Of a stretch of 64,000 nt of DNA, positions 8,122-50,077 are shown piece after piece (position 1 is the stretch's first letter; every line of letters starts with the position of its first letter). The DNA lies in the NCBI RefSeq assembly GCF_041886205.1, contig NZ_CP169029.1; one strand, given 5' to 3'. The position numbers and the translations under genes were made by a program. A model generated the notes under the pieces. It worked only from the letters and a program-made list of their open reading frames with translations. It did not search any database and was not told where the DNA came from. Origin of the DNA: Escherichia coli. GTDB taxonomy: Bacteria > Pseudomonadota > Gammaproteobacteria > Enterobacterales > Enterobacteriaceae.

Positions 8122-8229
8122 ATGAAACAGCAGGGAACTACCCTGCCAGCTAATAATCACACTCTAAAACAATATGCATTTTTTGCAGGGATGTTGTCGT
8201 CCCTGAAAAAGCAAAAATGGAGAAAAGGA

Positions 8230-9015
8230 ATGAGTGAATCATTACATCTGACCCGCAATGGATCAATTCTGGAAATTACCCTTGATCGTCCAAAAGCGAA
8301 TGCTATTGATGCAAAAACCAGCTTTGAAATGGGCGAAGTATTTCTAAATTTCCGTGACGATCCGCAATTACGTGTCGCCATTATTACCGGTGCCGGAGAG
8401 AAGTTCTTTTCCGCGGGCTGGGATTTAAAAGCGGCAGCAGAAGGCGAAGCACCGGATGCTGACTTTGGTCCGGGTGGTTTTGCGGGATTAACCGAAATTT
8501 TCAATCTCGACAAACCGGTTATCGCAGCTGTGAACGGCTATGCCTTTGGCGGCGGCTTTGAACTGGCGCTGGCGGCAGATTTTATTGTTTGTGCCGATAA
8601 CGCCAGCTTCGCCCTGCCGGAAGCCAAACTGGGCATCGTTCCTGACAGCGGCGGTGTGCCGCGTCTGCCGAAGATCCTGCCGCCTGCCATCGTCAATGAA
8701 ATGGTGATGACCGGCAGACGAATGGGCGCAGAAGAGGCGCTGCGTTGGGGGATAGTCAACCGCGTGGTTAGCCAGGCGGAACTGATGGATAACGCCCGCG
8801 AACTGGCTCAGCAGCTGGTTAACAGCGCCCCGCTGGCGATTGCGGCGCTGAAAGAGATCTACCGCACCACCAGCGAAATGCCGGTAGAAGAAGCGTATCG
8901 CTATATTCGCAGCGGCGTGTTGAAACACTATCCATCGGTTCTGCATTCGGAAGATGCCATTGAAGGGCCGCTGGCGTTTGCCGAGAAGCGCGATCCGGTG
9001 TGGAAAGGACGTTAA
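8230..9015 (+). CDS. caiD: Carnitinyl-CoA dehydratase CaiD (enoyl-CoA hydratase/crotonase family)
   Basis: Crotonase fold; start taken at [11 protein letters not shown] (261 aa); the track ORF from 8122 is an upstream in-frame extension. Confidence 0.92.
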
Positions 9016-9020
9016 CAACC

Positions 9021-9611
9021 GTGAGCTATTACGCCTTTGAGGGGTTAATTCCGGTGGTTCACCCGACGGCGTTTGTCCATCCCAGTGCCGTCTTGATTGG
9101 CGATGTGATTGTGGGAGCCGGTGTCTACATCGGCCCACTCGCCTCACTGCGTGGTGACTACGGGCGGTTGATCGTGCAAGCGGGAGCCAATATTCAGGAT
9201 GGCTGCATTATGCATGGCTACTGCGACACTGACACTATCGTTGGGGAAAACGGCCATATCGGGCACGGAGCGATCCTGCATGGTTGTTTGATTGGTCGCG
9301 ATGCATTGGTCGGGATGAACAGCGTGATTATGGATGGCGCGGTCATTGGCGAAGAGAGCATTGTTGCCGCCATGAGCTTTGTCAAAGCGGGCTTTCGCGG
9401 CGAGAAACGCCAGTTGTTGATGGGTACGCCAGCCCGCGCTGTACGCAATGTTAGTGACGACGAGTTACACTGGAAACGGTTGAATACCAAAGAGTATCAG
9501 GATCTTGTCGGGCGCTGTCATGTATCGTTACATGAAACGCAGCCACTGAGGCAAATGGAGGAAAATCGCCCCCGTTTGCAGGGGACGACGGATGTGACGC
9601 CTAAACGGTGA
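9021..9611 (+). CDS. caiE: CaiE, carnitine operon protein (hexapeptide-repeat family)
   Basis: Hexapeptide-repeat protein; likely GTG start at 9021 giving 196 aa beginning (M)SYYAFEGL. Confidence 0.9.
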
Positions 9612-10353: not shown

Positions 10354-13575
<3,222 letters not shown>

Positions 13576-13592: not shown

Positions 13593-14741
13593 TTACTTAG
13601 CGGTTTTACGGTACTGCTCAATTAACTCGATAAAGTGGTCGAACAACGGCGCGGCGTCGTGTGGACCAGGGCTGGCTTCAGGGTGACCCTGGAAGCTGAA
13701 CGCCGGTTTATCGGTGCGATGAATGCCCTGTAACGTACCGTCGAACAGGGATTTATGCGTGACACGCAGGTTTGCAGGTAATGTTGCTTCATCCACCGCA
13801 AAACCGTGGTTCTGGGCGGTGATCATCACCACGTTTTTCTCAACATCTTTAACCGGATGGTTGCCGCCGTGGTGACCAAATTTCATTTTGACAGTCTTCG
13901 CACCGCTCGCCAGCGCCAGCAGCTGATGACCGAGACAGATGCCGAATACCGGAATATCGGTTTCGAGGAATTTCTGGATGGCGGTAATGGCGTAATCGCA
14001 CGGGGCCGGGTCGCCAGGACCGTTGGAGAGGAAGATGCCGTCTGGATTCATTTTCAGCACATCTTCCGCAGAAGTTTGCGCCGGAACGATGGTCAGACGA
14101 CAGCCTCTGTCCACCAGCATCCGCAGGATGTTGCGCTTGGCACCAAAGTCATAAGCCACAACATGGAACGGCAGCTCGTCTTCTTTTTTCGCTTCTGGCA
14201 GGCCGCCGGTCAACGTCCAGCTCCCTTGTGTCCAGCTATAGGCTTCTGCGGTGGTCACTTCTTTTGCCAGATCCATGCCATTCAGACCTGGGAACGCGCG
14301 GGCTTTTTCTAACGCCAGCGCCGCATCCGGGTTATCGCCTGCGATAATGCAGCCATTCTGTGCGCCTTTCTCGCGCAGTAAACGCGTCAGCTTACGGGTA
14401 TCGATATCGGCAATCGCCACGATGTTATGGCGTTTCAAGTATGAAGAGAGATCTTCGGTATTACGGAAGTTGCTGGCAATCAGCGGTAGGTCGCGAATCA
14501 CCAGACCTTGTGCATGTACCTGAGAAGATTCTTCATCGGCGTCATTAGTGCCGACATTGCCAATATGGGGGTAAGTAAGAGTAACGATTTGACGAGAATA
14601 GGAAGGATCAGTGAGGATTTCTTGATAACCGGTCATTGAAGTATTGAAAACGACTTCCCCAACCGCCGAACCTGTTGCCCCTATGGCCCGACCGTGAAAC
14701 TGGGTTCCGTCTTCCAGAACCAATAGCGCTGACTTAATCAA
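13593..14741 (-). CDS. carA: Carbamoyl-phosphate synthase small (glutaminase) subunit CarA
   Basis: 382 aa; start assigned to the TTG at 14739-14741 (reverse complement of CAA), consistent with the remembered unusual UUG start; the track ORF begins at an upstream GTG. Confidence 0.93.
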
Positions 14742-14768
14742 AACACCCTCCAGAGAATATTCACTCAC

Positions 14769-14900
14769 TTTATTTGCATATTAATTCACAATGATGACGT
14801 AAATCAATGCAAATCTGCTTACCGACGAATTTCTGGCAAACGGCGGCATTCTGGAGATATGGGCGCTAAAAGTCAACTTAATGGCAGGATTTTTTATATT
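14769..14900 (-). promoter_or_regulatory. carAB tandem promoter/operator region with ARG boxes (ArgR operator at P2)
   Basis: Minus-strand reading TTGCATTGATTTACGTCATCATTGTGAATTAATATGCAAATAAAGTGAG just upstream of carA, matching the ARG-box palindrome pattern; AT-rich upstream region. Confidence 0.55.
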
Positions 14901-17124: not shown

Positions 17125-18333
17125 TTAATTGCTCATGGCTTTGAACTCATCGCTGCTGATACAGATATCCGAAATATCTTTATTCGTCACCAGACGCGGG
17201 CTGAGTTTATCGCCTTCAACAAACGGTACTAGCGGGCAAAATTCCCCTGGAGACGCTTTATCTTCCTGCCACTGAATTTCAATGGATTCCGGCTCCATGC
17301 CTGGTTTCTCTGACTGAATGACTGTGCGGATATCCGTGGTTAACTGAAATGGCTCACACCCCTCCACATCAGTAAAAGTCGGCGTCAGATGACCATTCTT
17401 ACGTTCCTGCAGATAAAAAATGCGGCCATCGTGATAGGAAGGAATTACGTAGCAGGTATACATTTTACCTTTACTTAGCACTGGCTGAAGATAACTTGAG
17501 CCGCTGTCGATCAATTCAACCTCTTTACCCTTCCAGCGATAAACGTCTATTCCGTGACTACAGCAACCGCCTCGCCAATGGCTGACGATCTGCTTATATT
17601 CTGCATCCGGCTCCGGCGAGGTGATTTCCTGATAAGACGCAGGCGCATCAACAAAACGTTGTGTTGAGGGATCGTAAAGCCAGGTTTGTTCGGGGATATT
17701 GGGTCCAGCGGGTAACTCTTGCGGAATGGAAAGATCCGGATAACCATCAAAATTAACATCCTCCCATTGAGGCGTAAAAATGCTACAAGTGCCGATAGAA
17801 GCAGTATATAAGGTCTGTATCGGTTTCCCATCACGATATAATTTTATTGCTGAAATGACCGGAACATTATTACAGTCGATCGCTTTGGTAGGGTCGTAAT
17901 CGTCATTCACTTCCGCCACCAGCACCAGATCAATGCCCGGATCGTTTTTGGGTTTGTTATAGTGAAGTGCTATGGGGAAATGGTGTTTTTTATCGGCTGA
18001 AGTCCATACACCTTTTATCTCAATCGGTGAAACTTCAGCATCCCATTGACCAGAAAGTGTCTGTGCGCGCTCCTCAAGAAGCAGCCGCTCAACCTGGAGA
18101 GATCCTCGCAGAATTAATCGCATTTTTCTCTGATTGCAGGGTTCATAGCAATAGCTACCATGAAGGTCGTTGTTAATCCGCGTAATATCGACACTTACCT
18201 GCTTACCCGCAATCGTCCCGGTATAATTTCGATCCCAGAACGAAAATTCAAGCTGCGAAGCGCCATTGGCCGCTCCCAAACAAAATACAAAAGCCAAAAA
18301 TCCCGCCAATCCATAAGCTATCTTGCTCATCAT
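17125..18333 (-). CDS. Hypothetical secreted protein (402 aa, signal peptide, Cys-containing); accessory insertion between ispH and rihC
   Basis: Intact ORF with GGAGG Shine-Dalgarno 7 bp upstream of a tandem ATG ATG start; N-terminal hydrophobic signal sequence [25 protein letters not shown]; no recognised family; as I remember K-12, ispH and rihC are separated by only a short spacer. Confidence 0.7.
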
Positions 18334-49780: not shown

Positions 49781-50077
49781 TTAGCGGTGATGTTTGCCTG
49801 GACCATGACCGCCGTGATGATCATGATGAGCTTTCTTATGGTGACGCGGCGGTGGCGGCGGTCCGTGTGGGTGCCAGCGATTGCCTCGCCATTCATAATG
49901 TTGTTTCCACCAGCCGTGGTCGCGCCAGTGACCGCCATCCCAGTAATAACCGCGATTATCACGATCGCCTATCTGTAATTTTACTGACGGGACTAACGTA
50001 ATTTCCGCAGCCTGCGCTGCCATGGGAGCGACCAGAACCAGGGAAAGTGCGAGTACGATAGATTGCATCTTTTTCAC
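49781..50077 (-). CDS. yaaX: YaaX (DUF2502), secreted His/Pro-rich small protein
   Basis: 98 aa with signal peptide and [26 protein letters not shown] tail; syntenic position. Confidence 0.85.

Follow-up and report, generated by a model that had tools for sequence, protein, structure and literature searches.

The question raised by carA in this stretch of DNA is where its translation begins. The mechanical list of open reading frames gives the gene only as 13593-14768, a frame of 391 aa opened by GTG. The first-pass annotation had pointed this out, correctly, and had placed the start nine codons further on, at a TTG codon at 14739-14741. It had also proposed GTG starts for caiE (9021), for a fimbrial chaperone gene (27609) and for insL (38632), and had stressed the importance of such starts for annotation pipelines that require ATG. 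We considered these starts in the window, by which we mean the whole analysed stretch of 64,000 nucleotides, together with annotations of related strains, protein structures and orthologous loci.

According to BLAST against complete E. coli genomes, the window is a part of the E. coli chromosome, inverted relative to the K-12 numbering. Starting at fixC, it contains caiTABCDE, caiF, carB, carA, dapB, rihC, ispH, fkpB, lspA, ileS, ribF and rpsT; continues with espX1 and a fimbrial island, nhaR, nhaA, a sulfatase/OmpK cluster, mokC, IS186, dnaJ and dnaK; and passes through thrCBA, arcA, creDCBA and rob to end near trpR. The strain is not K-12. Here espX1 and a fimbrial operon occupy the place of IS1A, whereas K-12 has IS1A there and lacks the fimbrial operon; the sulfatase/OmpK cluster between mokC and nhaA is a non-K-12 island as well. 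The genes ispH and rihC, adjacent in K-12, are separated by a gene for a 401-aa "XAC2610-related protein" (approximately 17125-18330, minus strand), a small strain-variable insertion absent from K-12. When a 1.8-kb fragment covering carA and its upstream control region was used as a query, strain 6EVA was 99.9% identical and almost all other E. coli were 95-99% identical. The PGAP annotation of this near-identical strain was mapped onto the window coordinates for the comparison of start codons. The features discussed below are listed in Table 1.

Table 1. Positions of the considered genes, start codons and regulatory sites in the window, and the data on which each is based.
Feature	Position	Strand	Basis
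caiE CDS (196 aa), GTG start 9021-9023	9021..9611	+	PGAP and K-12 annotation, three orthologues
In-frame GTG within the caiD 3' end, first codon of the 203-aa mechanical ORF but rejected as the start	9000..9002	+	ORF list, orthologues
carA CDS (small subunit of carbamoyl-phosphate synthase, 382 aa), TTG start 14741-14739	13593..14741	-	PGAP 6EVA mapping, K-12 record, PDB chains, orthologues
Shine-Dalgarno box GGAGG, 5 nt 5' of the carA TTG	14747..14751	-	read from the sequence; same spacing in 78/79 orthologous loci
In-frame GTG opening the 391-aa mechanical ORF; not the start	14766..14768	-	ORF list, orthologue alignment
Putative carAB P2 promoter	14774..14807	-	sequence reading and literature spacing
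carAB P1 promoter and GTTTGCC initially transcribed region	14835..14876	-	promoter scan
rpsT CDS, TTG start 24556	24556..24819	+	annotation; missed in the first pass
PapD-like fimbrial chaperone CDS (227 aa), GTG start 27609-27611	27609..28292	+	annotation in 6EVA and EC19, domain search
nhaA CDS, GTG start 33896	32730..33896	-	annotation; missed in the first pass
IS186 element with terminal inverted repeats	38584..39920	+	repeat search
insL (IS186/IS421 transposase, 370 aa), annotated ATG 38638-38640	38638..39750	+	PGAP, K-12 insL1
yaaX CDS, GTG start 50077	49781..50077	-	annotation; missed in the first pass

The interval 13593-14741 comprises 1149 nt, that is, 382 codons and a stop. On the minus strand its beginning reads ...CTCTGGAGGGTGTT TTG ATT AAG TCA GCG CTA TTG GTT CTG GAA GAC..., where TTG occupies 14741-14739 and the next four codons, ATT AAG TCA GCG, encode IKSA. 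In the PGAP annotation of 6EVA the start of carA maps to position 14741, and the curated record of K-12 MG1655 has a TTG start in the same context and a product of 382 aa, TTG being the start in both sources. The K-12 gene (b0032) has the identical start context (gagtgaatattctctggagggtgtt TTG ATT AAG TCA...), the same length, the same P1 promoter hexamers and the same GTTTGCC region; there is no relevant difference between the two genes. PDB, whose SEQRES records reflect the gene model of the depositors, contains six E. coli sequences of the CPS small subunit; each has residue 10 or 11 of the long ORF as its first residue, and five of the six chains have 382 residues and begin with MIKSALL. 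The product of carA matches the 382-aa chain 1cs0_B over the full length (E = 2.5e-261; the two are visually identical in the alignment), and carB (10354-13575) lies immediately downstream. This match and the adjoining carB identify the product as the small subunit of glutamine-hydrolysing carbamoyl-phosphate synthase.

The UUG start of carA has been in the literature ever since the carAB control region was sequenced; the primary papers are reportedly those of Piette et al. 1984 and Bouvier et al. 1984, and the experimental basis of the assignment is cited here through a review of 2018. That review gives TTG as the initiation codon (Charlier et al. 2018, PMC6245113). In protein-level data, the supplements of the TetRP paper contain no rows for carA, caiE, insL, rpsT or nhaA, and a 2026 N-terminomics supplement (PMC13245402) includes rpsT and has no row for carA, caiE, the chaperone or insL. 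In the case of CarA, the row may be missing because the N-terminal peptide left by trypsin, MIK, would be too short for detection.

The orthologue test was based on a scan of one genome per species, which yielded 80 carA loci, 79 of them including the 5' end of the gene. On the enterobacterial side they range over Citrobacter, Enterobacter, Serratia, Yersinia, Erwinia, Pantoea, Proteus, Photorhabdus and Xenorhabdus, and on the Vibrionaceae side over Vibrio, Aliivibrio, Photobacterium, Grimontia and Enterovibrio. Because the scan used patterns internal to CarA, it did not bias the choice of the start codon. The codon aligned with the TTG of the window is TTG in all 79 loci from Enterobacterales and Vibrionaceae. 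The invariant leucines 7 and 9 of CarA are each encoded by four synonymous codons in the same loci, so the invariant TTG does not behave as an ordinary leucine codon. It is preceded by GGAGG at a distance of 5 nt in 78 of the 79 loci. Initiation at the following AUU was also considered; it is ruled out by the variability of codon 2, which may be ATT, ATA, AGT, AGC, AAT, AAA or ACT.

The upstream GTG at 14768, from which CarA would have 391 aa and the N-terminal extension MSEYSLEGV, is the most upstream of the start codons in the ORF, and GTG occupies the same position in 37 of the 79 orthologues. However, in 35 loci the codon at position -9 is not a start codon, and in seven of these it is a stop (six TGA, one TAA). 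Stops within nine codons upstream of TTG occur in 11 of the 79 loci, and in 21 loci no in-frame ATG, GTG or TTG lies between the upstream stop and the aligned TTG. No conservation of amino acids was observed for the "codons" upstream of TTG across the 79 loci, and thus the nine-residue extension is not conserved as a protein. The partial conservation of GTG is explained by conservation of the control-region DNA around the P2 promoter. Moreover, there is no Shine-Dalgarno box 5' of this codon, and the 382-aa protein is the one given in every annotation and PDB entry. The orthologue alignment, which the first-pass annotation itself had named as capable of overturning its proposal, favours the short start for carA, as it does for caiE (see below), and effectively refutes initiation at GTG 14768, whose chances we consider close to nil.

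The structure of the carAB control region offers a further, inferential argument for the same start. The promoter scan identified P1 with the -35 box TTGACT and the -10 box CAGAAT separated by 17 nt (14876-14848). The P1 transcript is known to begin with GUUU and to be subject to reiterative transcription, and the start points of P1 and P2 are 67 nt apart (PMC6245113). By our own reading, the first transcribed nucleotide at P1 is likely the G at 14841; given the 67-nt spacing, the 5' end of the P2 transcript would therefore lie near 14774. The P2 promoter itself was not called by the promoter scanner (score 8/12), and the putative boxes, TTGATT at 14807-14802 and TAATAT at 14783-14778 with an 18-nt spacer, were read by eye. 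If the P2 transcript begins near 14774, GTG 14768 is approximately 6 nt from the end of the mRNA, so there would be no room for a Shine-Dalgarno box. Folding of the P2 leader RNA of carA yielded no significant structure (z = -0.9). Taken with the orthologue data, the probable position of GTG 14768 so close to the P2 transcript end gives the TTG start all the certainty that sequence analysis can provide. At this start, the strong GGAGG box would place the 30S subunit at UUG, and fMet-tRNA would read this codon to produce the 382-residue CarA beginning with MIKSALL.

The caiE gene, encoding a protein of the hexapeptide-repeat family, presents a similar problem. Its GTG at 9021 lies 5 nt beyond the stop codon of caiD (TAA, 9013-9015) and is the start in both the PGAP and the K-12 annotation; in the latter (b0035) the start context matches and the product likewise has 196 aa. 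The 5'-most start codon of the ORF is GTG 9000, and initiation there would produce a protein of 203 aa, the gene overlapping the 3' end of caiD by 16 nt; overlapping starts are common in operons. The orthologue test for caiE comprised three loci, namely those carA loci that reached far enough, from Citrobacter werkmanii, C. youngae and a Pseudocitrobacter MAG. In all three, ATG is aligned with GTG 9021 and opens a frame encoding MS[YI]YAFEGLIP. The upstream DNA is unrelated to that of E. coli and REP-like, in one locus with an in-frame stop six codons upstream, and the seven-codon extension has no counterpart in these three loci. The longer start is not supported, because the orthologues have the aligned ATG and unrelated upstream DNA and, in addition, the annotations give 196 aa; it thus seems very improbable. 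The start at GTG 9021 is supported by the same comparison, as had been proposed. The SD-like AGGA is 11 nt from this GTG, a distance longer than optimal. The short gap after caiD suggests that initiation at GUG 9021 is probably translationally coupled to caiD.

Two further observations were made at this site. In the three Citrobacter and Pseudocitrobacter loci (L005, L006, L014) the gap between caiD and caiE, 5 nt in E. coli, is occupied by a REP-like palindromic element (gtaggccggataaggcgtttacgccgccatccggca). Further, the longest ORF of caiD (8122-9015, plus strand) starts from ATG 8122 and has 297 aa, compared with 261 aa from the annotated ATG 8230. Thus caiD is another gene overextended by the longest-ORF track.

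The fimbrial chaperone gene lies between genes for a subunit (27026-27559) and an usher (28305-30755). Its product contains the domains PapD_N (PF00345, E = 3.9e-41) and PapD_C (PF02753, E = 1.6e-7), as do chaperones of the PapD family. PapD_N begins at residue 19, after MRIIIALLMSFFILPVHA, which is predicted to be a typical 18-residue signal peptide. Both domains, the signal peptide and the operon with a subunit and an usher identify the product as a PapD-like periplasmic fimbrial chaperone. An in-frame TAG lies 12 codons upstream of GTG 27609 with no start codon in between, and this GTG is the first possible start of the frame. It is preceded by GGAG (27598-27601) at a distance of 7 nt, and PGAP annotates it as the start in 6EVA and also in strain EC19, whose allele is 97% identical. 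Close to the 5' end there is a single in-frame ATG, codon 9 (27633). Were it the start, the leader would be reduced to the ten residues MSFFILPVHA, too short for a Sec signal peptide and having no basic n-region; in addition, the spacing of the GGAG box is correct for GTG but not for ATG, and PGAP uses GTG in two alleles. We therefore give the internal ATG hardly any chance. The upstream stop, the GGAG box, the signal peptide and the annotation all support GTG 27609, the start originally suggested; initiation at this GUG, 7 nt past GGAG, would yield the normal 18-residue signal peptide.

In the same operon, a perfect 9-bp GC-rich hairpin (CCGGTAGCtctGCTACCGG; 27569-27589, plus strand) was found between the genes for the major subunit and the chaperone. 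By analogy with other chaperone-usher operons, it is possibly an intercistronic attenuator or an mRNA-stabilising stem. The usher gene (28305-30755, plus strand) is an intact ORF of 816 aa in the window, and PGAP marks a frameshift in its 6EVA counterpart.

The situation is different for insL. The gene encodes a protein with the DDE_Tnp_1 domain and lies within an element bordered on both sides by the 12-bp target duplication GGGAGTGATCCC (38572-38583 and 39921-39932). The arms of the inverted repeat found by the repeat search have 38 nt, the flanking duplication included. The DDE transposase, the inverted repeats and the target-site duplication identify the element as IS186 of the IS4 family. 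The element is situated between mokC/hokC and dnaJ, the interval that holds IS186A in K-12; strain 6EVA has no IS there.

In the ORF of insL, GTG 38632-38634 is in frame with ATG 38638 and precedes it by 6 nt, or two codons. The first-pass annotation had chosen this GTG as the start, but it is merely the 5'-most start codon of the ORF, and all annotations use ATG 38638. In particular, insL1 of K-12 (b0016) has the identical acGTGccgATG and is annotated from ATG with 370 aa, matching the window in both start context and length. Initiation at GTG, with a product of 372 aa, or use of both codons would be consistent with the retention of the in-frame GTG in insL1 of K-12 and in a plasmid variant of 95% identity. 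Neither codon has a recognisable Shine-Dalgarno box, so the sequence does not discriminate between them. On the other hand, both PGAP and the curated K-12 annotation begin the 370-aa protein at ATG, and initiation in E. coli is several-fold more efficient at AUG than at GUG, the three canonical starts spanning 10-100% of the AUG level (bioRxiv 10.1101/063800). In the plasmid variant, the one diverged copy examined, the codon between GTG and ATG shows a non-synonymous change from CCG to CTG, which is at best weak evidence against the GTG start and does not discriminate between the two codons. Two tblastn searches of plasmids retrieved almost exclusively IS186 copies of at least 95% identity or very remote IS4 elements of Bacillus. 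A 14-nt inverted repeat found by the repeat search spans both codons; it does not occur in the predicted fold, nor is the RNA fold at the insL start significant (z = -1.7). Use of GTG, alone or together with ATG, is thus unlikely, though less so than the other alternative starts considered here. Most likely insL starts at AUG 38638 rather than at the GUG two codons upstream, and GTG 38632 should not be propagated as its start.

Mapping of the annotation placed 58 CDS in the window, of which 52 begin with ATG, four with GTG (caiE, the chaperone gene, nhaA, yaaX) and two with TTG (carA, rpsT). The initial list of non-ATG starts was thus right in three cases (carA, caiE and the chaperone), wrong or unsupported in that of insL, and incomplete as regards rpsT, nhaA and yaaX. 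For rpsT, the TTG start is supported by N-terminal peptides, including ANIKSAKKR, and by Ribo-RET (PMC13245402 supplement). The fraction of non-ATG starts, 6/58 (10%), may be compared with the E. coli baseline of about 83/14/3% for ATG/GTG/TTG, that is, approximately 17% non-ATG (bioRxiv 10.1101/063800). The probability of observing at least six such starts among 58 genes at p = 0.17 is 0.94, and the density of non-ATG starts in the window is ordinary, not above chance. For K-12, the number of UUG starts annotated earlier is given as 81 (PMC4909307).

Codon positions, agreement of annotations and conservation in orthologues very probably add up to ordinary initiation in well-known genes: at UUG 14741 in carA, GUG 9021 in caiE, GUG 27609 in the chaperone gene and AUG 38638 in insL. 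The three non-ATG starts among these are already known from the reference annotation and automated RefSeq annotation, and that of carA also from the literature. The concern about pipelines requiring ATG is moot, because NCBI PGAP already calls these starts correctly. The practical consequence is rather for longest-ORF tracks, which overextend carA by nine codons, caiE by seven and insL by two.

The single mildly interesting point is the deep conservation of the carA TTG, which might merit a start-codon swap. Beyond the 79 loci, the coding DNA was located for seven more remote CarA proteins (45-64% identity) from a 50%-identity representative library, which is too coarse for intermediate gammaproteobacterial lineages; six of them start with ATG and one with TTG. 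The latter comes from an AT-rich metagenome contig (L089) and encodes a CarA 50% identical to that of E. coli. There AGGAG is followed after 6 nt by TTG, and the genes are arranged as dapB-carA-carB, with dapB immediately 5' of carA as in E. coli. This AT-rich genome is probably that of an enterobacterial endosymbiont. TTG is found in all 79 loci and in this genome, and ATG in the six distant genes, so the TTG start is a clade-wide, long-kept feature of Enterobacterales and Vibrionaceae, but not a universal one.

One could go further and suppose that purifying selection, and not neutral chance, maintains the weak UUG start, because TTG is invariant in 79 species and persists in an AT-rich genome, while six distant carA genes use ATG. 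We regard this as rather unlikely. If it were true, AUG or GUG at the start of carA would be deleterious in the clade of Enterobacterales and Vibrionaceae. The combination of GGAGG and UUG might then set the CarA:CarB stoichiometry or, alternatively, UUG might make translation of carA sensitive to the status of IF3 or initiator tRNA. The known control of carAB is transcriptional and involves ArgR, PepA, IHF, PurR, RutR, reiterative transcription and ppGpp (PMC6245113). Selection for UUG would add a translational layer to this heavily studied control. Apart from this reading, carA, with TTG in 79 of 79 loci and the accompanying GGAGG, makes a clean textbook case of a weak start held over a long evolutionary distance.

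Classic weak starts of E. coli include UUG of rpsT, encoding S20, and AUU of infC, which are tied to translational autoregulation and to discrimination by IF3. The start of carA is similar to them in that a near-cognate codon is kept in a gene that is strongly expressed or closely controlled. However, in rpsT and infC the weak start is tied to regulation, whereas the regulation known for carAB acts on the level of transcription.
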